The notes beneath the pieces were generated by a model. The model was not told the origin of the DNA. It saw only the letters and a program-made list of their open reading frames with translations, and ran no database searches. This document shows, piece after piece, positions 1,856 through 55,900 of a DNA stretch of 64,000 bases (the stretch's first letter is position 1; every line of letters begins with the position of its first letter). The stretch covers positions 4,255 to 68,254 of the forward strand of contig PEZY01000012.1 in assembly GCA_002773855.1 (NCBI GenBank), read 5' to 3'. The DNA comes from Candidatus Buchananbacteria bacterium CG10_big_fil_rev_8_21_14_0_10_33_19. GTDB lineage: Bacteria; Patescibacteriota; Patescibacteriia; 2-01-FULL-39-33. A program made the position numbers and the translations under genes.

Positions 1856-3232
1856 ATGTCGGTTAAAAAAGATGATTTAATGCAAAAAATAGTCTCTTTC
1901 TGTAAAAGAAGGGGCTTTGTTTTCCCTTCGTCAGAAATTTATGGTGGCTTTGCTAATGCTTATAGTTATGGTCCTTATGGCACAGAATTAAAAAACAATA
2001 TTAAAAAATTATGGTGGAAAAAATTTGTTCAAGATAGAGAGGATATTGTAGGTTTAGATGGTCCAATTATGCTTAATCCTAAATTGTGGCAAGCCTCTGG
2101 TCATACTAGTGGCTTTAATGATGCTATGGTTGATTGCAAGGACTGTAAAAAAAGATTTAGAGCTGATCATTTAGTTGAAGAATCAACCGGACAAGATTTA
2201 GAGGGGGATTTAGGGGCGATGTCTAAAACTTTAGTAACTGAAAAGGTTAAATGCCCTAATTGCGGTAAATCTAATTGGACTGAGGCCAGAAATTTTAACA
2301 TGATGTTTAAGACCGAAATGAATGGGATTGATGAGCCAGTTTATTTACGACCAGAAACAGCTGGTGCGATTTTTGTAGATTTTAAAAATGTCTTAGATTC
2401 TATGCGAGTTAAAATTCCATTTGGCATTGCTCAAATAGGTAAGGCTTTTCGTAACGAAATTATTGCTGGTAATTTTATTTTTCGTTTGCGGGAATTTGAA
2501 CAAATGGAAATAGAATATTTTATTGATCCAGAAATGAAATGGGAGCCATTGTTTGATAAGTGGTTGGATGTTCAGGAGGAATTTGTGTTAGCCTTGGGAG
2601 CTAATAAAGATGATATTAAGAGATACGAACATCCTAAAGAAAAATTATCACATTATTCTAAAAAAACCGTAGATATTCAGTATAATTTTCCATTTGGTTT
2701 TAGCGAACTTTATGGTTTGGCTCATCGTGGTGATTTTGATCTGTCTCAGCATGCCAAAGCATCTGGTGAAGATCTGGCTTATTTAGACCAGTCTGATAAT
2801 AATCGTAAATATATTCCTCATGTCTTAGAACCAACTTTTGGTGTTGATAGGAGCGTTCTAGTAGCGTTAACCGCTGCCTATACCGAAGAGGTAGTAGGTG
2901 ATGAAAGTCGAACGGTATTAAAATTTCCTAAGTCCATTGCTCCAATTAAAGTCGCTATTTTCCCATTATTAAAAAACAAAGAGAATTTAGTGTCCAAAGC
3001 TAAAGAAGTTTTTGATTCTTTAAAAGATAGTTTTATGTGTGAATTTGATGATAATGGTAACATTGGCAAAAGGTATAGACGACAAGATGAAATCGGCACA
3101 CCTTACTGTGTGACCATCGATTTTGATACCTTAGAAGACAACACAGTTACCATTCGTGATCGTGATAGTATGATTCAAGATAGAATATCTTTAGACTCGC
3201 TAAAAGATTATTTGGTTAAAAATCTTATTTAG
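1856..3232 (+). CDS. glyQS: glycine--tRNA ligase, dimeric class II type (GlyQS)
   Basis: 458 aa. N-terminal FVFPSSEIYGGFANAYSYGPYGTELKNNIKKLWW and later FRNEIIAGNFIFRLREFEQMEIEYF are hallmark class-II GlyRS motifs. The Zn-ribbon insertion CKDCKKRF...CPNCGK is present. Confidence 0.9.
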   Translation: MSVKKDDLMQKIVSFCKRRGFVFPSSEIYGGFANAYSYGPYGTELKNNIKKLWWKKFVQDREDIVGLDGPIMLNPKLWQASGHTSGFNDAMVDCKDCKKRFRADHLVEESTGQDLEGDLGAMSKTLVTEKVKCPNCGKSNWTEARNFNMMFKTEMNGIDEPVYLRPETAGAIFVDFKNVLDSMRVKIPFGIAQIGKAFRNEIIAGNFIFRLREFEQMEIEYFIDPEMKWEPLFDKWLDVQEEFVLALGANKDDIKRYEHPKEKLSHYSKKTVDIQYNFPFGFSELYGLAHRGDFDLSQHAKASGEDLAYLDQSDNNRKYIPHVLEPTFGVDRSVLVALTAAYTEEVVGDESRTVLKFPKSIAPIKVAIFPLLKNKENLVSKAKEVFDSLKDSFMCEFDDNGNIGKRYRRQDEIGTPYCVTIDFDTLEDNTVTIRDRDSMIQDRISLDSLKDYLVKNLI

Positions 3233-3316
3233 AATTTTTATTCTAAAAAATTAAATAGTTCTAGTGTTTTTTGACAATAGGAGTTATTTAATCATCTAAA
3301 AAATATTATTTAAATA

Positions 3317-4573
3317 ATGTATAAATTAAAAAAATTAGCCAACAATGTTCAATTAATTACTACGCCAATAGTTGGCACGCAAACTGCTAGTCTGCTAGTT
3401 ATGGTGAAAGTTGGTTCTCGTCAAGAATCAGGTAGGCTTATTGGTATTTCTCATTTTATTGAACACCTAATGTTTAAGGGTACTAAAAGGAGACCAACCA
3501 CTTCAGATATTTCTAAGGAACTAGATGGTGTTGGTGCTGAGTTTAATGCTTTTACTGGCAAGGATTATACTGGTTATTATATTAAATCTGATACCAAACA
3601 TTTATCACTGGCTATTGATATTTTATCTGACATGTTAACTGCTTCGAAATTTGATCCAAAGGAAATTGAAAGAGAGAAGGGTGTGATTGTAGAAGAAATT
3701 AATATGTACGAGGATAATCCAATTATGCACGTGGAAGATTTATTGGAAAATATTATGTATAGTCCTCATCAATTAAGCGTAGATATTATTGGTACTAGAG
3801 AGACTGTTAAAGGCATGAGTCGAGAAGATTTAGTAACGTTTAAAGAGCGATTTTACGGTGGCGATAATATAGTTATCTCTTTAGCTGGTAATTTTACTGA
3901 TGGTCATATTACAGAAATTGAAAACAGTTTTAATTTTAAAACTGAACATGAGACTGTAGAAATTGATAGAATTTTTATTGATCAGGAGTCACCACGAGTT
4001 TCTGTGTCCTATAAAGAAACAGAACAAACACAACTAGCTATGGGTTTTCCAGCCTATTCTCATACAGATGAACGCTTACCAGCTTTGAGTTTGTTGTCAT
4101 TAGTATTGGGGGGTAATATGAGTTCAAGATTATTTATTTCTATTAGAGAGCGTAGTGGCTTGGCATATTCGATTAGATCTGGTTTAGATGTTCATGAGGA
4201 TATTGGTGCTTTAGTAATTAGAGCTGGACTAGATAAGTCTCGAATTGATGACGCAATTAAATTGATTTTAGTTGAACTTAATAAAATAAAAGAAGGCGTA
4301 ACTGAAGATGAACTAGCTAAAGCTAAAGAATGCCTGTTTGGTCGTACTGCTATTGATTTGGAAGATAGCTCTAGTGTGTCTAGTTGGTATGCGACTCAGC
4401 ATTTAATGACAGGAGAAGTGTTAACTCCAGCTGAAAAAAACGCTAAAATTAGCGCAGTTACTTTAGATGATATTGTGAAGGTGGCTAATGATGTTATTAA
4501 TTTAAATAAACTTAGCCTAGCAATTATTGGACCATTTAAGGATGATGAAAAATTTAAAAATCTCTTAAAATAA
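3317..4573 (+). CDS. M16 family (pitrilysin/insulinase-like) zinc peptidase
   Basis: 418 aa. Inverted zinc-binding motif HxxEH is present as HFIEHLMFKGT near the N-terminus, followed by the downstream EREKGVIVEEI glutamate region typical of M16. Confidence 0.8.
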   Translation: MYKLKKLANNVQLITTPIVGTQTASLLVMVKVGSRQESGRLIGISHFIEHLMFKGTKRRPTTSDISKELDGVGAEFNAFTGKDYTGYYIKSDTKHLSLAIDILSDMLTASKFDPKEIEREKGVIVEEINMYEDNPIMHVEDLLENIMYSPHQLSVDIIGTRETVKGMSREDLVTFKERFYGGDNIVISLAGNFTDGHITEIENSFNFKTEHETVEIDRIFIDQESPRVSVSYKETEQTQLAMGFPAYSHTDERLPALSLLSLVLGGNMSSRLFISIRERSGLAYSIRSGLDVHEDIGALVIRAGLDKSRIDDAIKLILVELNKIKEGVTEDELAKAKECLFGRTAIDLEDSSSVSSWYATQHLMTGEVLTPAEKNAKISAVTLDDIVKVANDVINLNKLSLAIIGPFKDDEKFKNLLK

Positions 4574-18208: not shown

Positions 18209-19045
18209 ATGAATCCATTGCCACAATCACCGCTGATGGCTCCACCTCAGCCAGATTATACCTATACTGGTCCGGAGCAGGTAGATTACAAGGACCGTCA
18301 AATCCATTACGAAAGAAAAAAGCGTCATTGGCAACGTTGGGTGTTTTATGTAGTTTTGTCCGTGGTTTTTTTGGCGATGACAGCTTATGCTGTTTACATT
18401 TATAGCGAAAATACTAAATTAGTAAATAGTATTACCGAGGCCAATGCTAGTTTAAAGATTACCACTCAAAATTTAAGTGATTCCGAAAAGCAATCACTAG
18501 AAAGACAACGCAAAGTGGCAGAGTTAGAAAAATCTTTAGCTGATAGTCAGGCCGATTTGGACAAACAGACTGCCGATTTACAAAAAGCCGGTGAAGATAA
18601 AACCAAACTACTAAGTAGCTACAATGATTTTAAAGTTTCTTTGGGTTCTTCGGATGCTAATATTTATTCTTTCTTGATAAATTATGGGGTGGGTGTGACC
18701 GCAGATAATTTGATAAAAATTCCATTGGCCGATTATAATTTGGGTGGTTTAGATACCGATGGCGATGGTTTGTCGGATACTATTGAAGTGGCTATTGGTA
18801 CCGATGCTAGTAAGAGTGATAGTGACGGCGATGGCTTTTCTGATCGTGATGAATTATTGGCTGGCTACAACGCTTTGGGCGAAGGCAAATTGCCAGTTGA
18901 TGCGGCTTTTGTCGATTTGAATCGCGGTTCTATTTTAATACAAGTAGAACAAAACCAAGGCGCTTGGTATATTAATCCTAAAGATGGCAAACGCTACTTC
19001 CTAGGCAACCCAGCCAAGGCACTGCAAGCGATAGAGAAGTTGTAA
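18209..19045 (+). CDS. membrane-anchored coiled-coil protein with TSP3-type (DxDxDG) calcium-binding repeats
   Basis: 278 aa. Pro-rich N-terminus, one TM (VFYVVLSVVFLAMTAYAVYIY), then a coiled coil (LQKAGEDKTKLL...). It has DTDGDGLSDTIE and DSDGDGFSDRDE repeats. Paralogous in architecture to the genes at 57066 and 57845. Confidence 0.55.
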   Translation: MNPLPQSPLMAPPQPDYTYTGPEQVDYKDRQIHYERKKRHWQRWVFYVVLSVVFLAMTAYAVYIYSENTKLVNSITEANASLKITTQNLSDSEKQSLERQRKVAELEKSLADSQADLDKQTADLQKAGEDKTKLLSSYNDFKVSLGSSDANIYSFLINYGVGVTADNLIKIPLADYNLGGLDTDGDGLSDTIEVAIGTDASKSDSDGDGFSDRDELLAGYNALGEGKLPVDAAFVDLNRGSILIQVEQNQGAWYINPKDGKRYFLGNPAKALQAIEKL

Positions 19046-19087: not shown

Positions 19088-19098
19088 TTATATATTTT

Positions 19099-19154
19099 AA
19101 CACTTCAAGCTAGGCTTGAAGTGTTCAATTTGGCTAAATTTAGGGGTTGATTTT
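19099..19154 (+). repeat. palindromic repeat element copy 1 (AACACTTCAAGC-TAG-GCTTGAAGTGTT plus conserved tail CAATTTGGCTAAATTTAGGGGTTGATTTT), followed by AATACTTGACAAA -35-like box
   Basis: Perfect 12-bp inverted repeat with a 3-nt loop. The same element recurs at 21162, 23775, 33909 and 35689 in the same orientation. Confidence 0.8.
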
Positions 19155-19283: not shown

Positions 19284-19571
19284 ATGTCAAACATTACCGA
19301 CATCCAAGAAGATGACAAGAAGCACCTTCGCAATGTAAAATTTGAGAATACTGATTTTCGAAAAGCCAGGCCAACCTTGATGCGCAGAATTTGTGTCATG
19401 GTGGCGTATCGTGATGGCGCTATTGGGGTTCGAGATTCCAAAGACGCCTCCAGAACGACACTTGTCTTCAATGAAGATGAGTGGAATGCCTTCATCACTG
19501 GCGTTAAGGATGGCGAATTTGATATTGATGTTTTAAAGGTTGCTTTACCTGGCGCATTAGAACGCGTTTAA
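19284..19571 (+). CDS. DUF397-like small protein
   Basis: 95 aa. VAYRDGAIGVRDSKDASRTTLVFNEDEWNAFITGVKDGEFD matches the DUF397 signature (VRDSK...LvF...eW.aFl.gvK.GeFD) known from actinobacterial XRE-associated pairs. Confidence 0.5.
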   Translation: MSNITDIQEDDKKHLRNVKFENTDFRKARPTLMRRICVMVAYRDGAIGVRDSKDASRTTLVFNEDEWNAFITGVKDGEFDIDVLKVALPGALERV

Positions 19572-19667: not shown

Positions 19668-20408
19668 ATGCAAGAAAAAAATCTTAAAATTAAATTAGCA
19701 GACGGCCACACTTTGTATGGTAAATTTTCTGGTTCATTTACTGAACCATTGTTTATTGTTTTGCACGGCATGACTGGTGATATGGAAGATGAGCTTTATA
19801 CTATGGCTGTAAACTGGTTTCAAAAAAAACAGTTTGCTACTTTTAGATTTAATTTTTATGGTTTTCAAAAAGACGCTCGTCAGTTGATGGATTCGACTAT
19901 TAAAATTCAAAGTTCGGATTTAGATAGAGTGGTTAAATATTTTAGAAATAAAGGCGTCAAGAAAATTTTTATTGTGGCCCATAGTTTTTCTGGGCCTGTT
20001 GTCTTGTCTTCGGTTGATCGCGACTTTGACGCTGTAGTTTTTTGGGATCCGACGTATAGAATTTCGTTTACCAAGGGTACCAAGGATTTTCCAAGCGGCA
20101 AATATATAAAAGAAGTTGATGCCTATGCTATGCATTGGGGGGTAAATATATTAATCAGTCGAGCATTGGCCAAAGAAGTGGATTCATTCCCTTGGAATAC
20201 AATTACTAAAGATTTGGCAGTGCCATTAAAAATTATTATTGGTGACAATAGTGAATTAAAAGGTTCTAAGAAATATTTAAATGTTTTGAAAGCCGAAAAA
20301 GAATTTGAGGCGCTCAAGGGTGGCACTCATACTTTTAATGATTCAGACAAGATTAGAGAGGCACTATTTAAATCCACTTATTCATGGTTTAAAAAGTTTT
20401 TAAAATAA
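19668..20408 (+). CDS. alpha/beta-fold hydrolase (esterase/dienelactone-hydrolase-like)
   Basis: 246 aa. Nucleophile elbow VAHSFSGPV (GxSxG-type), a preceding HG motif (FIVLHGMTG), and a C-terminal His region (GGTHTF). Confidence 0.65.
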   Translation: MQEKNLKIKLADGHTLYGKFSGSFTEPLFIVLHGMTGDMEDELYTMAVNWFQKKQFATFRFNFYGFQKDARQLMDSTIKIQSSDLDRVVKYFRNKGVKKIFIVAHSFSGPVVLSSVDRDFDAVVFWDPTYRISFTKGTKDFPSGKYIKEVDAYAMHWGVNILISRALAKEVDSFPWNTITKDLAVPLKIIIGDNSELKGSKKYLNVLKAEKEFEALKGGTHTFNDSDKIREALFKSTYSWFKKFLK

Positions 20409-20420
20409 TTAAAATCAAAA

Positions 20421-20453
20421 AACCTCTAGTTAATTTAGCTAGAGGTTTTTTAT
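20421..20453. terminator. bidirectional terminator (CCTCTAG-ttaatttag-CTAGAGG with a T-run); part of a roughly 107-nt segment duplicated at 35455..35560
   Basis: Hairpin with flanking A6 and T6 runs between the convergent hydrolase (+) and TPR (-) genes. Confidence 0.6.
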
Positions 20454-21041
20454 TTGGTTTTCTAAATCACTAATGATTTCTTTTTCTGTTTTTGATAGTT
20501 TCTGTGACCGACTTAATTTTTTGCCATGATCTAGTATCTCCTGGGCTTTTTTCTTTTGATTGGTTCGAATTAGAAGTCTGACAAAATTAAAGTAAGTGCC
20601 ATATGTTGCTTGGGAGGTGGCAATAGCCTTTTGATAGTATTGTTGTGCTTGTTTATCATCCCCGGACATTTTATAGACATTAGCCATGGAGTTTAATATT
20701 TGAGCGTCATTAGGTGTTATGGCTAAAGCTTGATTGTAATAACTTAAGGATTTGGAGGCCTTATTTTTGTGCCAGTATATTCGACCCAGGCCAATTAAGC
20801 CTTTTTTAGATTTTGGATAGTGCTTTAAAATTTGTTGATAAATATTTTTGGCTTTGTGATGTAATAATAATTTTTTACATATAATTTTTTTAGTTTGAGC
20901 TAGGTGGTCATATAAAATTCCCAAACTATAAAGTAGGTCCTCGTTTTGCGGATCGGTTTTTAGAGCGCTCTTTATTTGAGGTATTGGCTCTTTGTAGTTA
21001 CCATTTTTGAGAGCTGAGTCTATTAATTTTTCGAGTTTTTT
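20439..21041 (-). pseudogene. TPR-repeat protein gene, apparently 5'-truncated; the frame is open for about 39 codons upstream of the first possible start (TTG at 20924) and abuts a repeat-element copy
   Basis: The ORF-track protein (161 aa) shows TPR-like helices (YYNQALAITPNDAQILNSMANVYKMSGDDKQAQQYYQKAIA). The upstream in-frame translation LEYDKKLEKLIDSALKNGNYKEPIPQIKSALKTDPQNEDLLYSLG continues TPR-like sequence with no ATG/GTG/TTG before a stop at about 21042. The repeat element begins at about 21110. Confidence 0.45.
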
Positions 21042-21109
21042 ATCATATTCTAATTATAGTTGGAATGTGTTAATAAAACAATATTTTTTCTTTTCTTTGT
21101 TACCTTTCA

Positions 21110-21226
21110 TATTATTGTCATTGTGAGCTCGCGAAGCAATCTCATTTTATTACACTTTTCTAACACTTTACACTAGGCTTGAAGTGTTCGATTTGGCTAA
21201 ATTTAGGGGTTGATTTTTTGGGTAAT
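21110..21226 (+). repeat. palindromic repeat element copy 2, long form (GTCATTGyGAG...GAAGCAATCyCATTTT... plus degenerate hairpin plus GGCTAAATTTAGGGGTTGATTTT tail)
   Basis: About 120 nt alignable to 23730..23848. Here the left hairpin arm is degenerate (AACACTTTACAC vs GCTTGAAGTGTT). Confidence 0.75.
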
Positions 21227-21228
21227 AC

Positions 21229-21260
21229 TTGACAAATCTAATTAATCATGATAATAATAT
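21229..21260 (+). promoter_or_regulatory. repeat-borne sigma70-like promoter (TTGACA-17-TAATAA) reading into the graspetide precursor gene
   Basis: TTGACA at 21229-21234 lies within the conserved AATACTTGACAAA box at the element's end. A -10-like TAATAA is at 21252-21257. Confidence 0.45.
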
Positions 21261-21407
21261 AACTATAAGTTGTACATTATATAAATTCAAGAGTTTTGGC
21301 GACTTATTTATCTTTATTTCTGGCGCATATCGCTAATATAAAACCAATGTTGGTTTTTAGCCAGTGATTAGGATAATAAGTATAACAGAATAGAAAGGAC
21401 TAGTATT

Positions 21408-21524
21408 ATGTGCGCAAAAGCTAACCTACCATTTATTCTTGGTTATTTAGAGCATCATGTCGGCGCTATGTCTGCGACTACCAGTGGTACTCCAGGCGAT
21501 ATCGACTGTTTTGATGAGACTTAG
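21408..21524 (+). CDS. candidate graspetide (microviridin-like RiPP) precursor peptide, 38 aa; absent from the supplied ORF track
   Basis: ATG at 21408 is preceded by AAAGGA 8 nt upstream. Translation: MCAKANLPFILGYLEHHVGAMSATTSGTPGDIDCFDET. The leader motif LPFILGYL resembles the microviridin PFFARFL recognition helix. The C-terminal core is rich in Thr/Ser donors and Asp/Glu acceptors. The gene sits immediately upstream of the ATP-grasp gene. Confidence 0.5.
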   Translation: MCAKANLPFILGYLEHHVGAMSATTSGTPGDIDCFDET

Positions 21525-21535
21525 GAAATTATAAT

Positions 21536-21572
21536 GGGAGGTGGAAATACATATTCACCTCCCATTTTTTTT
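21536..21572 (+). terminator. intrinsic terminator/attenuator between precursor and ATP-grasp genes (GGGAGGTG-12 nt-CACCTCCC-A-T8)
   Basis: Perfect 8-bp GC-rich stem followed by TTTTTTTT, placed 12 nt after the precursor stop and 26 nt before the ATP-grasp start. This precursor-attenuator-enzyme layout is typical of RiPP operons. Confidence 0.6.
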
Positions 21573-21597
21573 CATAAAAAACAAAAGGAGAGTAAAG

Positions 21598-22560
21598 ATG
21601 ATATTAGCTATTGGTAATTCAGGCTCATATGAGGTAGCAGCATTTAATTCCGTCTTAGAAGAATTGAAGAAAAATGGCGAAGAAGCAGTTCTATTTAAAC
21701 AAGATAAATGTCTCGATGGTGAATATTTAGTATTTGAAAGTAATAATGGAGTTACTGTTTATAACGTAATTATTGATGGTAAAGAATATAATATTGATTC
21801 CTTTTCTGCTATTTGGTATATGAAACCTCATCTACCATTAGAGCTAATGGAATTTGAGCCAGCCAAATATCAGCAATTTATTCAGCGTCAGTTTATTGCC
21901 ATGCGAAAAGCACTTTGGTATCTTTTTAAAGATAAAAAATGGATTGATGATCCAATTGTTATTGATAGGGCGGAAAATAAAATATTTCAATTAACCCTAG
22001 CAGAAAAGGCAGGCCTTTTATTGCCAGATACACTAATAACCTCTGATCCAGATAGAATAAGAAAATTTTATGTCGATACCAGTGGCGATTTGGTTGTTAA
22101 ATTATTAGGGTCTAGTCCAATGGTTAATGAAGTCATTTTTACTAATGTGGTAACGCCTGAGTATATGGTTAAAATAGATTCGGTAAAAATGTCACCCTCT
22201 ATTTTTCAACGACGTATTCTAAAAGCCTATGAATTGAGGATAACAATTGTTGGTGATAAAATTTTCCCGATAAAAATTTATTCTCAGGGCGATGAACAAT
22301 TGGAATTGGATTGGCGTAGAAAGCCCAAACTTAATGATTTTGAAGCTAAGATGGAATTAACATCTCTGCCCAGTGAGGTAGAGAAAAAATTAGTATCATT
22401 TATGAAATTAATTGGTTTGCGTTTTGGCTGTATTGATATGATAGTTACTCCAGATGGGGAATATGTCTTTTTAGAAATTAATCCAAATGGGCAGTGGTAT
22501 TTTATCCAACTTCGTATTGAAGTTGAAATAGCCAAAGCGATAGCTACACTTTTACTATAA
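21598..22560 (+). CDS. ATP-grasp ligase, RimK/MdnC-like (candidate graspetide macrocyclase)
   Basis: 321 aa from ATG 21598 (RBS AAAGGAG). The track's 21541 start overlaps the terminator hairpin. N-terminal pre-ATP-grasp domain MILAIGNSGSYEVAAFNSVLEELKKNGEEAVLF, a central ATP-grasp region, and C-terminal GCIDMIVTPDGEYVFLEINPNGQW (E-x-N plus NGQW, as in microviridin-type ligases). Confidence 0.6.
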   Translation: MILAIGNSGSYEVAAFNSVLEELKKNGEEAVLFKQDKCLDGEYLVFESNNGVTVYNVIIDGKEYNIDSFSAIWYMKPHLPLELMEFEPAKYQQFIQRQFIAMRKALWYLFKDKKWIDDPIVIDRAENKIFQLTLAEKAGLLLPDTLITSDPDRIRKFYVDTSGDLVVKLLGSSPMVNEVIFTNVVTPEYMVKIDSVKMSPSIFQRRILKAYELRITIVGDKIFPIKIYSQGDEQLELDWRRKPKLNDFEAKMELTSLPSEVEKKLVSFMKLIGLRFGCIDMIVTPDGEYVFLEINPNGQWYFIQLRIEVEIAKAIATLLL

Positions 22561-22563
22561 AAT

Positions 22564-22606
22564 AAGAGGGAGGGATTAATACATCTTTACCTCTTTTATT
22601 TTCTAT
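22564..22606 (+). terminator. weak terminator-like hairpin after the ATP-grasp gene
   Basis: AAGAGG...CCTCTT stem with a long loop followed by TTATTTT. Confidence 0.3.
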
Positions 22607-22645
22607 ATATTATTGATATTATACTAATATAGATACAAATAAATT

Positions 22646-23209
22646 ATGAAACAAAAAATTAATGAAAATTTATTAAAGAACATCAAAGAGATGTTTGATG
22701 CTGACCAAGATTTAAGGAATCTTTGGGATAATAAAGATCTAACCAAACCACTTGCGCAGTGGAGTGGTAAAAATTCGGCAAAAAATAAATTAAATTTTGG
22801 CTTAATTAATTATTTAGTTTATTTTGTCGATGCAGCGCACAATCCTAGACTTCATCGAATAATAGAACAATATGGCTATCCCACCACCAAGTTACTTGGC
22901 AAGAAAGGGATGTTATATTTTTTTGTTTTAATTGATCATCAGGATTATGATATTGATTTACAAAAAGCGTGTTTGGCAAAATGTGATTTCGAAAAAAAAC
23001 ATATAGCCAATTTAACAGATAGAATTTTACTTCACGAAGGTAAAAAGCAGATATATGGCACAATGTTCCAGCGAGATTCTAAGGGTCAGAAAATAATTTC
23101 TCAACCAATTGCCGATAAGAAAAATGTTGATAAGAAAAGAAAAGAAATGGGCCTTGGGCCACTGCAGATTGCTTTGGATTCTATGAATAAAAAGTTTTAT
23201 AAAAAATAA
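22646..23209 (+). CDS. hypothetical protein of unknown family (paralog of 23246..23644)
   Basis: 187 aa. It shares ...A.L.DRI...KKQIYGT.F......Q.I..P.........KRKEMGL.P... with the neighbouring minus-strand ORF. No motif is recognised. Confidence 0.45.
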   Translation: MKQKINENLLKNIKEMFDADQDLRNLWDNKDLTKPLAQWSGKNSAKNKLNFGLINYLVYFVDAAHNPRLHRIIEQYGYPTTKLLGKKGMLYFFVLIDHQDYDIDLQKACLAKCDFEKKHIANLTDRILLHEGKKQIYGTMFQRDSKGQKIISQPIADKKNVDKKRKEMGLGPLQIALDSMNKKFYKK

Positions 23210-23245
23210 TATTTAGTAAATAAAAAGTGATAACTGTAATTATTA

Positions 23246-23644
23246 TCACTTTTTTTGTAGATTTTTTTGAGATTCTGATAATTTATTTTTATATTTTTCA
23301 AATGGCTCCAGACCCATTTCTTTTCTTCGCTTGTTGAGTGTCGATTTATTTTTGATTGGCCGATTTATAAACCTTCTATTTTTTGTTAAATAAAATTGAG
23401 TGCCATAGATTTGCGGCAGTTTTTTGTTGGTTTGAATTCGGTCTGTTAAATAGGCTAGTTGCCATAGTGGCACTTGTTTGGCTTTCATTAGTTCTAGACA
23501 TTGTTCCTGAAATTTAATGTCTTTGTCAGCATGTTGTGCGATAAGCCAAGCACCAGATGACGCCTTCTCGCCAACAATTTTAATATCGGGCCAGCCATAT
23601 TTGTCTATTATTTTTTTGTCATCCCGCACCCAACCACTTGTCAT
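23246..23644 (-). pseudogene. N-terminally truncated paralog of the 22646 gene, abutting a repeat element
   Basis: 132 aa aligning to the C-terminal ~130 residues of the 187-aa paralog (IIDKYGWPDIKIVGEK... vs IIEQYGYPTTKLLGKK...; QIYGTQF..RKEMGLEP). The 5' end coincides with repeat-derived sequence (TTGTCATCTC...). Confidence 0.4.
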
Positions 23645-23681
23645 CTCGACCCCATTCGACTACGCTCAAGGTAAACTCCGC

Positions 23682-23706
23682 GGAGCGGAGTGGAGTGGAG
23701 TGGAGT
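23682..23706. repeat. pentanucleotide tandem repeat (GGAGY)x5 adjacent to a 10-bp palindrome CTCCGCGGAG
   Basis: GGAGC GGAGT GGAGT GGAGT GGAGT read directly; it lies inside the repeat-element mosaic. Confidence 0.7.
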
Positions 23707-23729
23707 GATCCCTTTTCTATTTGTCATCT

Positions 23730-23848
23730 CATCTATCACCGTCATTGCGAGGGACGAAGCAATCCCATTTTTATCGCACTCTAGCGAACACTTCAATCTA
23801 GGCTTGAAGTGTTTGTTTTTGGCTTAATTTAGGGGTTTATAGTTATTG
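23730..23848 (+). repeat. palindromic repeat element copy 3, long form (GTCATTGCGAGGGACGAAGCAATCCCATTTT...AACACTTCAATC-TAG-GCTTGAAGTGTT...GGCTTAATTTAGGGGTTTATAG)
   Basis: Alignable over about 120 nt with copy 2. Partial extra fragments (TTGTCATCTC) lie upstream at 23637 and 23717. Confidence 0.75.
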
Positions 23849-23849
23849 T

Positions 23850-23878
23850 TTGACTTATTGTAATAAATACTGTATAGT
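23850..23878 (+). promoter_or_regulatory. sigma70-like promoter TTGACT-17-TATAGT; predicts a leaderless transcript of the half-size hsdS gene
   Basis: The -10 TATAGT ends at 23878. The hsdS-half ATG is at 23885, about 7 nt downstream, so the A of the ATG is at the expected +1. Confidence 0.5.
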
Positions 23879-23884
23879 ACCTAC

Positions 23885-24469
23885 ATGTATAAAAAAATAA
23901 AAGAATTAACTAATATATCATCTGGGTATACTTTTCGCGGATCTATCAAAAATGATTCAAAAGGAAATATTTTTGTAATCCAGGCAAAAAATATTTATGC
24001 TAATAAAGATATTATAAATATTGATGGCTTTTCGACAATATTAGATGATTCTATAAGAAATCCATTTTTTTTAGAATATAATGATATATTACTGGTTAGT
24101 AGAGGTTCTGGCTTTAATTCTTTTCGTTCTGCTGTTTTTACATCTAATATAAAGAATGTAATGCCATCGTCTTCAGTACATGTGATTCGTGTTAAAGATG
24201 TGAATATAATTCCAAAATATCTGTCTTTATATTTAAATTCAGATATTGGACAAAAATCATTATATCAAATTGTTACTGGTGGTGCATATATTCAGAGTAT
24301 GCTCATTAAGGATTTAAATGAATTAGAAATTCCAATACCACCTATTAATACCCAAAAATCTATTATAGCAATTCACGAAAACGCAGCAAAACAAGAATTA
24401 TTGTATACAAGAAAACAAGAGATTCAAAAAAACATTATTAATTCAATATTTATTAATCTGACAAAATAA
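23885..24469 (+). CDS. hsdS: Type I R-M specificity subunit, half-size (single target-recognition domain)
   Basis: 194 aa, a single TRD followed by the conserved HsdS helical region LNELEIPIPPINTQKSIIAIHENAAKQELL (compare LP.L.EQ..I). It is half the length of the downstream hsdS. Confidence 0.65.
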   Translation: MYKKIKELTNISSGYTFRGSIKNDSKGNIFVIQAKNIYANKDIINIDGFSTILDDSIRNPFFLEYNDILLVSRGSGFNSFRSAVFTSNIKNVMPSSSVHVIRVKDVNIIPKYLSLYLNSDIGQKSLYQIVTGGAYIQSMLIKDLNELEIPIPPINTQKSIIAIHENAAKQELLYTRKQEIQKNIINSIFINLTK

Positions 24470-24473
24470 TTTT

Positions 24474-24704
24474 ATGAAGAACAAGCCATACAAGACAATT
24501 AAAGAAACACCTTCTGGTCGCAATAAGAAAAGTATTAATTTAAATAATCTTTCAAGGGAAAAGAATAAAGAACTGATTAAAAAAGTAGAGACTGTAGGCG
24601 TACCAGGTTATCACGTTGTAAAGCGTAAAGGTGAGAAAAAATTTTTACGATCTAATCTTGATCGAAGGAAAAAGAATAATCTAGATCCTAAAATTAATAA
24701 ATAA
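24474..24704 (+). CDS. hypothetical small lysine-rich protein
   Basis: 76 aa, 30% K/R, tightly packed between hsdS-half and hsdM. No motif. Confidence 0.3.
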   Translation: MKNKPYKTIKETPSGRNKKSINLNNLSREKNKELIKKVETVGVPGYHVVKRKGEKKFLRSNLDRRKKNNLDPKINK

Positions 24705-24705
24705 T

Positions 24706-26217
24706 ATGACTACAAAAAAATACACACAAGAAGATTTGAATAAAATCCTCTGGCAAGCAGCGGATTCTTCACGCACTCAAGTAGATGCAGGGATCTATAA
24801 AGACTATGTGCTTGTAATGCTTTTTTTTAAATATCTTTCTGACCTTTCAAAGAAAAAGCATAATGAGTATAAAGAGCGTTTTGGTAATGACGAAAAGCGT
24901 ATTGAAGAGAAGATGAAACTCGATCGTTTTTATCTACCGCCAAAAGTTTCTTTTGATTATATTTATAAAGTTATTGAACAAGACAATCTCGGAGAAGAAA
25001 TAGACAAAGCACTTCACGCAATCGAAGACGCAAACAAAGAAAAACTTGAGAATATGTTTTTAAATGTGTCATTTAATTCTGAAGTCTTAGGGAAAAGCCA
25101 AGAACGAAACAAGATGCTTCGGCACCTTGTGCATGATTTTGCAAAAATAGATTTGTCAGATGTAAAAGACGACATCATTGGTAATTCATATATGTATATG
25201 ATCGAACGCTTTGGAGCCGATGCGGGCAAAAAAGCGGGAGAATTCTTTACTGTCAGAAATGTTGCACATCTTGTAGCAAAATTCGCTGAACCAAAGGCAG
25301 GAAGTCGTATTTGTGATCCTTGTATGGGTTCAGGTGGACTACTCCTTCTTGCGGGTGAAGAGGTAGAAAAACTAGGCTCAAAAAATTATGCTCTGTATGG
25401 ACAAGAATCTACTGGTTCAACCTATCAATTAGCACGGATGAACATGTTCCTTCATGGAAAAGATTCTGCACGACTGGAGTGGGGCGACACACTAAACAAT
25501 CCACTCCTTGTTGAAAATGACAAGTTGATGAAATTTGACACCATTGTTGCTAATATGCCATTTTCTCTCAGCAAATGGGGTGCTGAAAATGCCGGCGGAG
25601 ATAAATATAACCGCTTTTGGAGAGGTGTTCCGCCAAAGGACAAAGGAGATTTTGCTTTCATAACTCATATGGTTGAAACACTTAAGGCAAAAACTGGACG
25701 AATGGTGGCCATTGCTCCTCACGGGGTACTCTTTAGAGGTGGTGCCGAGGGGAAGATTCGAGAACAATTACTTAAAGAAAATGTGATCGATGCAGTGATC
25801 GGACTTCCTGCAGGACTTTTCCAAACAACTGGTATTCCTGTGGCAATTCTTATTCTTGATCGAACGCGTGAAAAAGGTGGAGAAAATGAAAAAACAAAAG
25901 ATGTCTTCTTTATTGAAGCATCAAAAGAATTCAAAGCACAAAAGGCTCAGAATATTTTGACTGATGAGAATATTGAAAAAATTTATTCTACCTACAAAAA
26001 GCGCAAGGATGTAGAAAAACTTGCTCGTAAGGTTTCTATCAAAGAGATTGAAGAAAATGATTTCAATCTTAATATAACTCGGTATGTTGACACCTTTGTC
26101 GAAGAAGAACCTGTCGACATCAAGGCAAACCTTGAGGAATTGGCGAAACTTGAACCAGAACTTCAAAAACTTGAAAAACAAATGGTCGAATATTTAAAGG
26201 AATTAGGAATCAAATAA
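24706..26217 (+). CDS. hsdM: Type I R-M N6-adenine DNA methyltransferase subunit
   Basis: 503 aa. N-terminal HsdM_N-like region (LWQAADSSR...[16 protein letters not shown]), AdoMet motif [13 protein letters not shown], and motif IV VANMPFS (NPPF-like). Confidence 0.9.
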
Positions 26218-32345: not shown

Positions 32346-33050
32346 ATGAAATTTATTTTTGGAACATTTATATATGACTATCAGAGAATAACTCAAAATC
32401 GTAAAACTTTGAGTTTAACTGTTTCCCCTGATTCCAGTATTACTCTTAAATGTCCGGATAATATTGATAATGAAAAAATACAGTTATTTTTACAAAAAAA
32501 GTGGTTTTGGCTGGAAAAGCAATTATCTTTTTTTAAGCAATATCAGCGGAAAATTTATAAAAGAGAATATATTTCTGGTGAGGGATGTTTATATCTAGGA
32601 AGACAATATAAAATTGTTATCAAAAATAGCACCGAAGATAAAGTTGTTCTTACTAGGGGTCAGCTTATTGTTAATACCAGAAGACAGGTTTCAAATAGTA
32701 GTTATAATAAGAAACTTATTGATGAGTGGTTTTTAAACAGAATAAAAGTTGTTTTTGATGACAGATTTTCAGAAATACAGTCAAAATTTGGTTATCATGA
32801 CACATCAGGATACTCTATTAGAGAAATGAGACGTCGATGGGGTAGTATTTTAAAACAGAAAAAGGTTTTATTAAATCCAAAATTAATTCATGCATCAAAA
32901 GATTGTATTGACTATGTGATAACTCATGAATTATGTCATAGAAAATATAAAAATCACGATAAAAGATTTTATAAATATCTTCAAGAAAAATATCCAAGAT
33001 GGGAAAAAGTAAAGGATAAGTTGGAGATATTAGGATCAATGATTTATTAA
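32346..33050 (+). CDS. DUF45/YgjP-family predicted zinc metallohydrolase (frequently linked to hsdR)
   Basis: 234 aa. C-terminal HELCHRKYKNHDKRFY matches the YgjP HExxH...NH motif. The gene starts 4 nt after the hsdR stop. Confidence 0.7.
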   Translation: MKFIFGTFIYDYQRITQNRKTLSLTVSPDSSITLKCPDNIDNEKIQLFLQKKWFWLEKQLSFFKQYQRKIYKREYISGEGCLYLGRQYKIVIKNSTEDKVVLTRGQLIVNTRRQVSNSSYNKKLIDEWFLNRIKVVFDDRFSEIQSKFGYHDTSGYSIREMRRRWGSILKQKKVLLNPKLIHASKDCIDYVITHELCHRKYKNHDKRFYKYLQEKYPRWEKVKDKLEILGSMIY

Positions 33051-33908: not shown

Positions 33909-33940
33909 AACACTTCAAGCCTAGTCTGAAGTGTTCGAAA
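33909..33940 (+). repeat. palindromic repeat element copy 4 (hairpin only: AACACTTCAAGCC-TAG-TCTGAAGTGTT)
   Basis: Same hairpin with 2 mismatches, 14 nt upstream of the sppA start codon. Confidence 0.7.
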
Positions 33941-34844: not shown

Positions 34845-35447
34845 ATGAAACAAGTTTTAATAATAAATGGTGGCAGTACTTTTGATTCTGATGAAGACTA
34901 TTTAGAATCTCTTAAAAATAAAGTTTTGTCATTAAATAAAATGAAGCTTCAATTAGATTGGAAAAATAGTCTGCAGGCTGATTTGGGCGATAAATATCAA
35001 GTCTTGGTGCCAAGAATGCCAAATACTAGTAATGCTAAATATAATGAATGGAAGATTTGGTTTGAAAAGACAGTCGCTATACTAAATGATAATTTTATTT
35101 TGATTGGCCATTCGTTGGGTGGAATTTTTATAGCTAAATATTTATCGGAAAATAAAATTGCTAAAAAAATTATAGCTACTATTTTAGTCGCGCCTCCACA
35201 TGGTGATATTATTGGTGGTGAAAGTCTAGGATCTTTTAATTTACTAAATGATTTAAAATTATTTGGCGAACAGGCTAGCAGTATTACAATATTTTTTAGC
35301 CGTGATGATGTCGTCGTGCCAATTGAACATATGGCAAAATATCAAAATGATTTGCCAGAGGCTAAGTATATTGTTTTTGATGACCGTGGTCATTTTAATA
35401 CGTTGGAATTTTCTGAATTAGTGGAGGAGATTAAAAGTTTAAATTAG
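34845..35447 (+). CDS. alpha/beta hydrolase, RBBP9/YdeN-like serine hydrolase
   Basis: 200 aa. Nucleophile elbow LIGHSLGG, then later D (DDVV) and H (GHF) for the triad. The size and motif spacing fit the YdeN/DUF1234-type hydrolases. Confidence 0.6.
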   Translation: MKQVLIINGGSTFDSDEDYLESLKNKVLSLNKMKLQLDWKNSLQADLGDKYQVLVPRMPNTSNAKYNEWKIWFEKTVAILNDNFILIGHSLGGIFIAKYLSENKIAKKIIATILVAPPHGDIIGGESLGSFNLLNDLKLFGEQASSITIFFSRDDVVVPIEHMAKYQNDLPEAKYIVFDDRGHFNTLEFSELVEEIKSLN

Positions 35448-35454
35448 TTATAAT

Positions 35455-35560
35455 AAAAAATCCCTAGTTAATTTAACTAGAGATTTTTTATTTGGTTTTC
35501 TAAGTCAATTATGATTTCTTTTTCAGTTTTTGATAGTTTTTGTAACTGACTTAATTTTTT
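35455..35560. repeat. duplicated ~107-nt segment (about 90% identical to 20416..20522): terminator hairpin plus a relic of the TPR gene 3' end
   Basis: AAAAAATCCCTAGTTAATTTAACTAGAGATTTTTTATTTGGTTTTCTAAGTCAATTATGATTTCTTTTTCAGTTTTTGATAGTTTTTGTAACTGACTTAATTTTTTT versus the sequence downstream of the 19668 hydrolase gene. In this copy the minus-strand TPR reading frame is not maintained as an ORF. Confidence 0.7.
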
Positions 35561-35688: not shown

Positions 35689-35722
35689 TTAACACTTCAA
35701 GCATAGGTTGAAGTGTTAGAAT
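35689..35722 (+). repeat. palindromic repeat element copy 5 (AACACTTCAAGC-ATAG-GTTGAAGTGTT)
   Basis: Same hairpin family, followed 10 nt later by a TTGACA box. Confidence 0.7.
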
Positions 35723-52900: not shown

Positions 52901-55900
52901 CCACTAATAATGACGCGCCAGATCCTAATTATGATTTTCCATATTTGAAGGTTAATGGTGCTAATAAAACCGATCCTAATTTAGGCGGTAATCAGCATTT
53001 ATATATGGCTTGGGGGGTTAATGAGTTTGGTTATCTAATTAAAGCCGAAGGTGGTTTTAATTGGAGCTTGGCTAATTTACCAATATTTGATTTAGCGGTG
53101 ACATCTTATGATGGTACTAGTTATACTGGTGATCAATGGTTAAGTTTAAAGGGCTATAAAGCCACTGGAGAAATTGATGGTCGTGATGTGGTAACAGTAT
53201 CAGCGACTCAGTCTGGAGTAAATCCAACTCCCGTTATTGAATCAAAAGACATAGATGTTAGAGTTTTCTTATGTAATAATCCTTGGCCAGCACCAGAAAA
53301 TTTCCCATATCAAGATTCTTTAAATAATTGTACTAATGGCAATTGTCCAAATACTAATTTTGAGATTTATTATTGTCGTGATAATGGTGTAGTCGGTGAA
53401 GCGGAAGATTTGGCTGCTCTAGATACTAGCACTATTGTTTACGATGCTAATCCATTTAAAAAAGAATTTTTATTGCAACGTGATGATAATAATGATGCTG
53501 TGGGTATTAGAGTAGTAGCTAATAATAATCATTACTCACCACTAGCTTGGTATCAAGAAAACTTTGATCAGGAAAGACAGGGCAATTCTAGGAGCATTAA
53601 AGTTAATGGTTATGAGGCCATAGCCGAAGGCCGAACGATTTATGTTAATGCGGTTAATGTTGAAAATACAATTTCTTCACCAAAATCGCTGTATTCACAA
53701 ATTTATGTGATGTCTTATAATGATGGTGCTGATAATAATACTAAAAATATTTATGATCAGATGGCCAAATTTATGAAGTTTAATGTGGGCACTTCACTCG
53801 AAGGCGGTTTATCAGACGTTGGGGTATGTAAAGATAATTCTAGTTACAATTGTATTAATGATAGCGATTGTCAGGCAGTTAATGCTGGAGTTTGTTTATC
53901 GCCAAAAGGCAGTGCAACTCGTGATATTAAACGTTTATCTGATTTACAAGATATTAATTTATTGTTGGATGAATATCATAGTCAAAAACGTTGTAGTAAT
54001 GACAAGTTTACTACTTGTTATAGTAACGCTCAATGTTATGGTGGTGGTACTTGTGGTAATTACTATCCAGACTTGCCGGCTGGTACTTATATTTCGGCTC
54101 GTAGTTTTAGTGTTTGGCCTTCTTGGCAAGCTACCTTGGGCAATGTTTTAGGCTCGGCTTTACCAGTTGACCCATTAAATAATGGTGCTAGTACTGATTA
54201 TTTTGCTGTGGATGGTTATGGTTTTAACGGTTGTTCTGAGCCATATGATTCAATTACTTGTTGGGATGATGTTAATAAGAAAATGCAGTGCCCAAATACA
54301 GCCCAGGCTTACGCTTATTTCTCTAACAATAATGGTAATAATAAGGGTGTTTATGCTTTTGCTGAATTTCCTAAATCTGGTTCTGGATCGGCTATCTGGT
54401 TGCCTATAAATTGGGACAATGTCAGATTTTTTGGTAATCAGGATGGGAATAATACTAATGATAATAACCCATTTAGTTTTACTGTTAGTAATACTTGTGA
54501 AGTTTATTCTAGTTCTTGTGGTAATGGCACAATTCAAGCTGGCGAAAATTGTCATAGTTGTCCGTTTGATGTGAGTTGCGGGGCTGGTACTTCTTGTCGA
54601 GAAGCTAGTGGTAGTTGGTCCTGTACTCCAGACTCGACGGTTATTGATTCAGACGGCGACAGTATTATAAATAATAATGATAATTGTCCGTTTATTGCTA
54701 ATACTAATCAAGTGGATTCTGATGGTGATGGCATTGGTGATGTCTGTGATAATTGTTTTAGTATTAAAAATGGTTCAACTAATTCGACTGCCACTTGTCT
54801 GGATAAAAATAATAACGGTAATTTAAGTGTGGCTGAAAAAGCGGTTTGTAATCAAGCAGACAAAGACGGTGATACTTATGGTGATGCTTGTGATACTTGT
54901 CCTGCTGATTACAATCAAGATCAAAGTGTGAAACCTTGCGTGTTGGCTGGTTGTGGTGACGATGTAATACAGGCTGGTGAGTTTTGTGACGAATTAGAAA
55001 ATCCACCGACTGATGCTGGTACTTGTAATGCCACTTGTAGTGCGGCTACTTTTTGTGGTGATGGTGTAATCCAGAGTTTAAATGGTTATGGTGATTTAGA
55101 AACCTGTGATGATGGTAATAGTTTTAACGGTGATGGTTGCTCTAAAACCTGTACTATCGAAGCTGGTTGGGAGTGCTCTGGTACACCAAGTAGTTGTAAT
55201 GTGCCATTTTGTGGTGACGGCATAAAACAGGCTTCTGAGACTTGTGATTGTGGCGATGCTCCAGGTCCACTAGGTGCTCCGTCTAATTGTGGTAATTCTG
55301 GTCAAACTTACACTACTCATAATATTCCTCCAAAAGCTAATCTGGACACTTACTTTAATCCTTTCTGGAATATTACTTCAGTATCAAAGAATTATTGTAG
55401 TAGTTCTTGTAAGAATATGTCTATAGATTTGTTATATTGCGGTGATAGTGAATGGAAACAGTCTCAAGAAGAATGTGAAAAAAATGGTGCTGGTGATGGT
55501 AGTTTTGGTTGGGGATTAGCCACTGGGGCTGATAATCAGTGGTCTTGTAGCACTACTTGTACAGATACTGGTGGTTGGTGTGGTGATGGCACGGTTCAAA
55601 CTGCCAAGGAACAATGTGATCCTAGTGATAGTGGAATTAACAATATTTACAATAGTCTTTGCCAAACTGATGGCGTCAATAAATGTAAATGGGAAGCTTG
55701 TCCACCGTATATTACTAATCAAGCAGTTAATTTTGAATCACCAACTGGTGGAGCGTTAGTGGCTGGTAACAGTGTTAAGTTCACTGACAATGGTCAAACC
55801 GTTAACATAGTTTTTCCTAATTGTAGTTTGGTAGAAAATAATCAATTAAATACTACTGTCACAGTTGTAGGTGAAGTGCCAACAACTGATGTGGTGTTTG

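Follow-up and report, generated by a model that had tools for sequence, protein, structure and literature searches.

The locus

The window analyzed here is the whole 64,000-nt stretch of contig PEZY01000012.1, and our subject is a short gene cluster within it that we assign, with high confidence and including the mechanism set out below, to the biosynthesis of a graspetide, i.e., an omega-ester-linked peptide that is made on the ribosome and modified after translation (RiPP). Its three genes follow one another on the + strand: a 38-aa graspetide precursor gene (21408..21524) lies upstream of a gene for a 320-aa ATP-grasp graspetide macrocyclase (21598..22560), in which an ATP-grasp domain follows a pre-ATP-grasp N-domain, and a gene for a 187-aa DUF6624 protein (22646..23209; PF20329, 6.5e-17) starts 85 nt past the ligase. 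An intrinsic-terminator-like hairpin with a T8 run separates precursor and ligase (21533..21572, +), and a second, truncated DUF6624 paralogue of 132 aa (23246..23644, – strand; PF20329, 7.5e-18) is convergent with the first copy. A sequence-only reading of this DNA had proposed the precursor–ligase pair; our analyses support its core interpretation as correct, and the third conserved gene and its truncated paralogue had been overlooked.

The precursor peptide

The precursor frame was found exactly where it had been placed, and it translates to MCAKANLPFILGYLEHHVGAMSATTSGTPGDIDCFDET. The Shine-Dalgarno-like sequence GAAAGGA (21393..21399, +; read from sequence) lies 8 nt before the ATG, which bears out the ribosome-binding site claimed earlier. 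The leader comprises residues 1–20, with PFILGYLE at 8–15 and Gly19-Ala20, and the core comprises residues 21–38, with Thr24, Thr25, Ser26, Gly27, Asp31, Asp33, and Asp36; the core-peptide codons TTSGTPGDIDCFDET (21477..21521, +) are the predicted site of Thr/Ser-to-Asp omega-ester crosslinks. Pfam and NCBIfam models gave no match to the 38-aa peptide. As the region has 34% G+C and contains 74 open reading frames (ORFs) of at least 25 aa in 8 kb, frames this short are common, and the significance of a 38-codon ORF therefore comes only from its conservation. The ORF had been described as missing from the ORF track, which holds for NCBI, where no source lists the exact 38-mer whereas the ligase is listed; the gene finders of JGI/IMG, ENA, and Logan do call it, on 22 contigs. 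An 833-aa GyrB (P0136) in the 90%-identity cluster of the peptide was dismissed as a database clustering artefact with no biological link.

A scan of one genome per species yielded 80 related loci, and conservation of the precursor was assessed in the 20 nearest (L001–L020), whose ligases are 39–70% identical to that of the window. An ATG-started small ORF with the same leader and core ends 15–105 nt upstream of the ligase in 15 of these 20 loci. Three-frame reading recovered the precursor in two more, namely L011, where it carries a one-base frameshift (about 3820-3935) that may be an assembly error, and L014, where it has a non-ATG start. The homologous small ORF is thus found in L001–L011 and L013–L018, and precursor–ligase pairs do occur in relatives, as the claim of a graspetide locus had implied; among the 18 full-length related loci, 16 have it conserved upstream of the ligase, and the 400 nt that were read ahead of the L012 ligase contained no precursor ORF. 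An ORF of the insertion sequence (IS)-type transposase kind (about 3200-4000) cuts the L019 ligase short at residue 109, and the L020 ligase is without its N-terminal third, so that, taken together with L011, the system is decaying in some genomes.

A profile built from 15 precursors was run against 5.8 billion proteins and picked out 62 peptides 32–70 aa long, the best E-value being 1.5e-18; for about 20 of the 62 the longest contig equals in length that of a ligase match, which suggests shared contigs. Counted from the residue ahead of PFIL, 53/63 peptides are exactly 32 residues long, and the 69 distinct sequences align almost without indels in a 32-residue block, xPFILxFLExxxGAxxxTTSGT(W/Y)xDIDxxDxx. 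All column counts given here refer to these 69 distinct blocks. In the leader, block positions 2, 3, 5, and 9 are Pro (60/69), Phe (60/69), Leu (66/69), and Glu (55/69), and the pair at 13 and 14 is Gly (64/69) and Ala (55/69). In the core, position 18 is always Thr (69/69), position 19 is Thr in 68 and Ser in one, and position 20 always offers a nucleophile (Ser 58, Thr 7, Cys 4); Gly at 21 is invariant (69/69), Thr occupies 22 in 61/69, and Trp (31) or Tyr (27) prevails at 23, followed by Asp at 25 (60/69), at 27 (Asp 68, Asn 1), and at 30 (Asp 68, Glu 1). The counterparts of the conserved columns in the window peptide are Pro8, Gly19-Ala20, Thr24, Thr25, Ser26, Gly27, Thr28, Asp31, Asp33, and Asp36. 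The description of a core rich in Thr/Ser donors and Asp/Glu acceptors is thus borne out at the level of the family, in which two Thr and two Asp columns are nearly or fully invariant. The N-terminal extension ahead of the PFIL motif varies from 0 to 38 residues across members, and the functional leader is therefore about 13 residues long. From these alignments we conclude that the small ORF is a genuine precursor gene and is conserved.

The family is not confined to the Candidate Phyla Radiation (CPR), as L009, a locus on a 6.25-Mb chromosome of a Chitinophagaceae metagenome-assembled genome and hence of a large Bacteroidota genome, contains a full precursor (3822-3986; …KPFILNFLTYRKGVTAPTTTGTWPDPDASDNS) together with a ligase that is 47% identical; the spacer there is 14 nt long and the DUF6624 gene is convergent. 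Several other related loci are labelled 'uncultured Gammaproteobacteria', and these tags may be binning labels.

The ATP-grasp ligase

The best start of the ligase is the ATG at 21598, which is preceded by AAGGAG at 21585-21590, and all 26 aligned homologues open with MILAIGNSG. The gene had been given as encoding 321 aa; it is present as described, and the protein has 320 residues, the 321st codon up to 22560 being the stop codon. The C-terminal FLEINPNGQW block (residues 291–300) and the pre-ATP-grasp N-domain, for which Pfam PF21068 (MvdD-type) matches residues 14–118 with an E-value of 3.6e-05, are both found as they had been described from the letters, and PF21068 is precomputed in many of the ligase homologues.

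By sequence and by fold, the ligase groups with graspetide macrocyclases, apart from RimK, GshB, and Ddl. Among NCBIfam models run against the full-length protein, MvdC (2.8e-64, 217 bits), MvdD (4.2e-59, 200 bits), and TIGR04187 (8.1e-56, 189.5 bits) lead, followed by grasp-with-spasm (6.5e-31), and RimK stands about 170 bits under the RiPP maturase models (2.6e-12, 46.7 bits). The ligase remains below the cut-offs of the housekeeping families (rimK_fam 46.7 vs 143.4, glutathione synthase 17.8 vs 272, Ddl 15.6 vs 245.65 bits). The PDB entries closest by sequence are MdnB (1.5e-41) and MdnC (9.5e-40), and then AMdnB, CdnC, PruB, and PsnB. An AlphaFold2 model computed from an alignment of 27 homologues reached a predicted local distance difference test score (pLDDT) of 88, and in a Foldseek search with this model the top 32 matches were all graspetide ligases, with template modeling (TM) scores of 0.68–0.86, RimK coming next at about 0.65. 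The peptide complexes of CdnC and MdnC ranked first (TM 0.79–0.86), and with MdnC the superposition of the full-length model extends across about 325 alignment columns. The maturase-versus-RimK comparison that had been suggested as a check on the assignment thus comes out in favor of the maturases, and the protein does not cluster with housekeeping ligases of the RimK/GshB/DdlA type.

Asp280, Glu293, and Asn295, in the segment CIDM...FLEINPNGQW, show no variation among 27 homologues and have aligned counterparts in MdnB and MdnC. From their spacing (Asp, then Glu-x-Asn 13 residues on) and from general knowledge of the ATP-grasp superfamily, we take them to be the Mg-ATP ligands. The exact protein is listed in databases as 'hypothetical protein GW933_00170 [Candidatus Falkowbacteria bacterium]' on a contig of 565 kb, and its best 120 database relatives, which are 46–70% identical, come nearly all from Patescibacteria or metagenome contigs. 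No second ATP-grasp gene was seen among the annotated neighbours.

The DUF6624 proteins

In tblastn searches of the 20 closest loci, 16 have DUF6624 immediately behind the ligase and on its strand, and 18 have it no more than 2 kb away; none was found in L012, nor in the 758 nt that are available downstream in L003. No variation was seen among 14 sequences at His98, Asp100, Asp102, Gln106, Cys109, Asp125, Arg126, and Gln135. The paralogue at 23246..23644 is without about 95 N-terminal residues of the first copy and keeps the conserved H, D, D, Q, C, D, and R columns. The DUF6624 proteins of this clade start without the hydrophobic N-terminal stretch of two more distant aligned homologues. DUF6624 is a conserved accessory protein and the third gene of the cluster.

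The inter-gene hairpin

The hairpin between precursor and ligase had been described as a perfect 8-bp GC stem with T8. It is real, and its stem is longer and stronger than that: 13 pairs, six of them G-C, close an 8-nt loop (21533..21566) and run into the T8 at 21565-21572. The 56-nt hairpin stretch folds with –23.4 kcal/mol, as compared with –8.3 ± 2.35 kcal/mol for shuffled sequences (z = –6.4), and none of 200 shuffles was as stable. In all 15 related loci with a spacer, the precursor–ligase spacer was more stable than dinucleotide shuffles (z –2.2 to –6.7, median –4.0). The best hairpin of each locus is a strong G+C-rich stem, the sequences being unrelated between loci, and a T-run follows it in about half of them. 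As the structure is conserved and the sequence is not, a role in transcript ratio or stability would fit. In L009 the 14-nt spacer holds no hairpin and the peptide is kept.

Proposed maturation and alternative explanations

From the observed gene identities, conservation, and synteny, we propose a maturation route whose chemistry, ring topology, hairpin function, leader removal, and bioactivity are inferred. By analogy to the MdnC, CdnC, and PsnB complexes, the ligase would bind the PFILGYLE helix in the leader of the 38-aa peptide and, again as in known graspetide ligases, would phosphorylate core Asp carboxylates in an ATP-dependent manner, namely those of the near-invariant Asp33 and Asp36 and the usually conserved Asp31. 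The hydroxyls of Thr24, Thr25, and probably Ser26 would then be guided onto the acyl phosphates, so that two, probably three, macrolactone rings would form round a turn at the invariant Gly27. Only esters are expected, because the core is without Lys and there is just one ligase. The likeliest topology would be a nested hairpin, with a Ser26-Asp31 ring inside Thr25-Asp33 and this inside Thr24-Asp36; in a sister sub-clade, core position 3 no longer offers a nucleophile and position 5 is still Thr, which suggests that the third donor may shift between these two positions. With its constant length of 32 residues, the stretch between leader motif and C-terminus may act as a ruler between the leader-binding and active sites. 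Through either partial termination or 3'-end stabilization, the hairpin after the precursor stop codon would make precursor mRNA more abundant than ligase mRNA. Gly19-Ala20 is a possible GG-type leader cleavage site; about half of graspetide precursors are reported to carry a GG/GA leader cleavage motif (PMC11626197). The probable product class would be a small protease-inhibitor-like peptide.

Several points weigh against this proposal. The crosslinks are predicted from the genes, and neither Makarova et al. (2022) nor Carter et al. (2026) reports an experimentally characterized member of the family. The column of Asp31 is replaced in 9/69 precursors and that of Thr28 in 8/69, which makes the number of rings uncertain, and the window peptide carries Pro29 where most members have Trp or Tyr. 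The ligase scores fall under the NCBIfam equivalog cut-offs throughout (MvdC 217 vs 425, MvdD 200 vs 475, TIGR04187 189.5 vs 350 bits), so that it is a relative of these families and a member of none, and its PF21068 score of 24.3 bits is slightly short of the gathering threshold of 27. As about half of the family hairpins are without a T-run, termination is not their sole possible role. Finally, no peptidase or exporter gene lies in the cluster, and none is conserved beside it.

The last point bears on an alternative that concerns function and not chemistry: precursor and ligase would form a genuine pair, but the whole cross-linked peptide of 32–38 aa would be the final product, neither exported nor freed of its leader, and would act in or on the producer, e.g., by inhibiting or regulating a protease that belongs to the cell itself, its host, or a phage. 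Several members, for example the 32-aa MPFILMFVEVREGMVCATTSGTWDDIDCSDQD, have no extension before PFIL at all, so that the peptide is already minimal, and the DUF6624 proteins of the clade are devoid of the hydrophobic N-terminus mentioned above. On the other hand, the strong conservation of Gly-Ala at block positions 13-14 resembles the GG/GA cleavage motif (PMC11626197), and genes for processing can sit elsewhere in a genome; overall, we consider an uncleaved final product somewhat unlikely. A little more room must be given to the idea that DUF6624 is the key partner, acting as a protein that the ligase requires, as a leader peptidase, or in tailoring, such that the ligase alone would be inactive or yield an incomplete product. 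Its position directly behind the ligase in most of the closest loci speaks for this, as do the invariant polar residues, which look like an active or binding site. However, DUF6624 has no sequence or structural similarity to any characterized protein, no DUF6624 is visible in two loci of the clade (L012, and L003 with its short downstream sequence), and it could just as well be an immunity or target-mimic protein, so that we hold this idea only tentatively. Bolder still, and in our view rather improbable, is the combined proposal that DUF6624 is a new type of graspetide accessory protein (a partner, Gly-Ala peptidase, or tailoring enzyme with no solved relative) and that the peptide with its 32-aa block is a protease-directed effector of ultra-small episymbionts against hosts, competitors, or phages, and not a diffusible antibiotic.

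Two further explanations would remove the peptide substrate altogether, and we consider both to be very improbable. If the ligase were a housekeeping RimK/GshB-type enzyme acting on some other substrate, the small ORF would be there by chance or be unrelated; several sources do name homologues 'glutathione synthase/RimK-type ligase-like ATP-grasp enzyme', and there is a weak match to the Pfam RimK domain (18.7 bits). Yet RimK scores far below MvdC and ranks behind the graspetide ligases in the fold comparison, and the small ORF is kept at the protein level between unalignable flanks in 16 of 18 loci and in 62 database peptides. The small ORF could instead be a cis-acting leader peptide that governs read-through of the terminator and so attenuates ligase expression, for which the strong terminator-like hairpin only 8 nt past its stop codon, conserved in the family, would provide the basis. 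But attenuation leaders conserve regulatory codons and not Thr/Ser and Asp residues at fixed spacing, nor a PFxxxFLE motif like those that ligases recognize; moreover, the hairpin lies entirely downstream of the stop codon, no alternative anti-terminator pairing is evident, and L009 has the peptide with a spacer that forms no hairpin.

Relation to known graspetide systems

Graspetide clusters of the Candidate Phyla Radiation were reported by Makarova et al. (2022; Biol Direct 17:7, PMC8939145), and the supplementary cluster1865 of that study covers three Candidatus Giovannonibacteria genomes with a 320-aa ATP-grasp partner and the sequence MEKVDLKQTKEQEPTRQLPFILGFLEYREGAMAPTTCGIITDIDAYDAA. It consists of 3 near-identical sequences that receive a passing mention in the main text, and the study also describes a recurrent uncharacterized 'cluster 23' protein (PMC8939145). 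Our precursor profile matches the cluster1865 representative (P0139) with an E-value of 1.6e-17. MEKVDLKQTKEQEPTRQLPFILGFLEYREGAMAPTTCGIITDIDAYDAA has the same 32-residue block as the window peptide, with the PFILGFLE leader, Gly-Ala, TT(S/C)G, and DIDxxD, the partner ligase is likewise 320 aa long, and both systems come from the CPR; judging from the alignment, the two peptides plainly belong to the same precursor family. They differ in that cluster1865 has Cys, Ile, and Ile where the window core has Ser26, Thr28, and Pro29, and in lineage, Giovannonibacteria as against Falkowbacteria for the window locus in our analysis. The Giovannonibacteria locus has, in addition, a tandem second system (cluster1874 with a 309-aa ligase), whereas the window locus has a single ligase.

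Carter, Ramesh, Saad, Mubarik, and Mitchell (2026; ACS Chem Biol 21:698, PMC13097080) defined a group 42 of 22 clusters, 81.8% of which contain DUF6624; many of its examples come from candidate phyla. The group resembles the window locus in its candidate-phylum origin and its combination of a synthetase with DUF6624, and the core TTHGTPNDPDSGGTD of its representative precursor MKKNSTPKPLILDRLRQPIEDIYKGGEKAMEGFTTHGTPNDPDSGGTD aligns with TTSGTPGDIDCFDET of the window. The representative shares with the window peptide only the TTxGTPxDxD core and a leader motif of the P-h-h-L type (KPLILD), and it falls into a sister sub-clade with L014 and L016–L018, whose ligases are about 39–42% identical to that of the window. 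In this sub-clade the leader-core linker is about 8 residues longer, core position 3 has no nucleophile, and Gly replaces the third acceptor Asp. Group 27 of the same study was considered as a home of the window peptide and rejected, as its precursors are unrelated. Besides these two papers, no further one was found in literature searches for DUF6624 and for CPR combined with RiPP and ATP-grasp.

The earlier view that the locus is microviridin-like, and that RiPPs are rarely reported in ultra-small CPR genomes, needs revision on both counts. The microviridin system MdnA/MdnB/MdnC (group 1; PDB 5ig8, 5ig9) provides the closest solved ligases (1.5e-41 and 9.5e-40; TM 0.82–0.86), with the same domain organization as the window ligase. 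In sequence, the leader also resembles the PFFARFL motif, as had been suggested, in that PFILGYLE follows the pattern of the microviridin PFFARFLE, with P, F, an aromatic residue, L, and E in common (P-F-x-x-x-aromatic-L-E) and Ala-Arg replaced. The core, however, is not of the microviridin type: it contains neither Lys nor PSD nor the motif TxKYPSDWE(E/D), and the window has one ligase where microviridin has two, for esters (MdnC/MvdD) and amides (MdnB/MvdC), and neither an acetyltransferase nor an ABC transporter. Plesiocin (group 2; PsnA2/PsnB, PDB 7drm) is similar in that adjacent Thr-Thr residues precede acidic acceptors and a single ligase is used; its ring-in-ring TTxxxxEE parallels the window core and suggests nested ester rings of the hairpin type. 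Plesiocin differs in its adjacent Glu-Glu acceptors and its core repeats, as compared with Asp at +5/+8/+12 in a single core, and PsnB is distant from the window ligase (E 1.1e-11, TM about 0.72). As to novelty, the precursor family and its association with DUF6624 are already present in PMC8939145 and PMC13097080, so that the statement of rarity is out of date; the cluster is a further member, from a different lineage, of a CPR graspetide family that had been catalogued by computation, and its kind is not new.

What our analysis adds is breadth and precision: at least 69 distinct precursors are now available, as compared with 3 in Makarova et al. and 21 in group 42, together with a precise consensus, the fixed 32-residue block, the conserved inter-gene hairpin, and the precursor-ligase-DUF6624 order. 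DUF6624 recurs across several graspetide groups. If the prediction is true, a very small genome devotes three to four genes to a ring-locked peptide, which could serve in interaction with a host, in competition, or in defence against phages. With a 13-residue leader, a 32-residue block, one ligase, and one partner, the family is compact and thus an easy test bed for rules of leader-core distance, for ring topology, and for the role of DUF6624.

Upstream elements and genomic neighborhood

The best promoter-like site in 20900-23800, a TTGACA-18 nt-AATAAT arrangement at 21229..21258 (+), agrees with the consensus at 11/12 positions and lies 150 nt upstream of the precursor ATG. It is a consensus match only, and the number of promoter-like sites in the region (16) is not above that in shuffled sequences (13.7). 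An Rfam search of 20900-23900 gave no match at E-values up to 1, so that the 150-nt 5' region contains no known riboswitch or leader.

The operon had been proposed to be driven by a promoter carried on a repeated palindromic element. The repeat is real: the palindrome AACACTTCAA-N7-TTGAAGTGTT occurs in five copies in the window (19099-19125, 21162-21188, 23787-23813, 33909-33935, and 35691-35717), as compared with 0.01 expected, and each copy is intergenic, 45–250 nt upstream of a + strand gene. The copy on the precursor side (21162-21188), however, reads AACACTTTACAC-TAG-GCTTGAAGTGTT, with a degenerate left arm, followed by GGCTAAATTTAGGGGTTGATTTT; it is no more stable than shuffles (z +0.25), and its link to the promoter is positional only. 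It belongs to a repeated intergenic element (21158..21217, +) that is 92% identical over 60 nt to 19095-19154, and the alignment of the two copies runs on into ACTTGACAAA. Since no copy of the palindrome was found in any of the 80 related loci, we rejected it as a graspetide-family feature and regard it as specific to this genome; operator, terminator, and repetitive extragenic palindromic (REP)-like element are possible roles. Copies of the palindrome bracket gene cassettes, among them the graspetide cluster, at whose far boundary a copy with perfect arms (23787..23813, +) lies upstream of a type I restriction-modification operon (23885..26217; HsdS-like PF01420 and HsdM PF02384, 4e-94). This operon directly adjoins the cluster, and the extended repeat (palindrome, GGCTAAATTTAGGGGTTGATTTT, and ACTTGACAAA) upstream of the precursor is shared with the neighbouring DUF397/hydrolase operon, its other copy standing before the DUF397 gene (19284..19571; PF04149, 1.3e-10), which is followed by the alpha/beta hydrolase gene; this is the setting in which the effector proposed above would stand. 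The graspetide and DUF397/hydrolase operons may be co-regulated.

The genes for the tetratricopeptide repeat (TPR) protein (20439..20924), the alpha/beta hydrolase (19668..20408), and the DUF397 protein were considered as parts of the cluster and rejected, because tblastn found no homologues of them next to the ligase in L001–L020. All three families have been reported near graspetide ligases elsewhere, DUF397 and alpha/beta hydrolases near clusters in other phyla. A 123-nt direct repeat, 85% identical between 20400-20522 and 35438-35560, spans the 3' termini of the hydrolase and TPR genes, which are convergent; the second copy follows another serine-hydrolase gene (34845..35447), with no TPR ORF of at least 60 aa remaining, and may be the remnant of a duplicated cassette. 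Farther along, the window contains a gene for a YgjP-like metallopeptidase (32346..33050). Coding repeats of the DTDGDG type occur at 18733-18856, 54186-54753, and 57635-57761, in several large ORFs of the window; these units are bacterial TSP3 repeats (PF18884 in the ORF 18209..19045), and the ORFs that carry them probably encode secreted or surface proteins.

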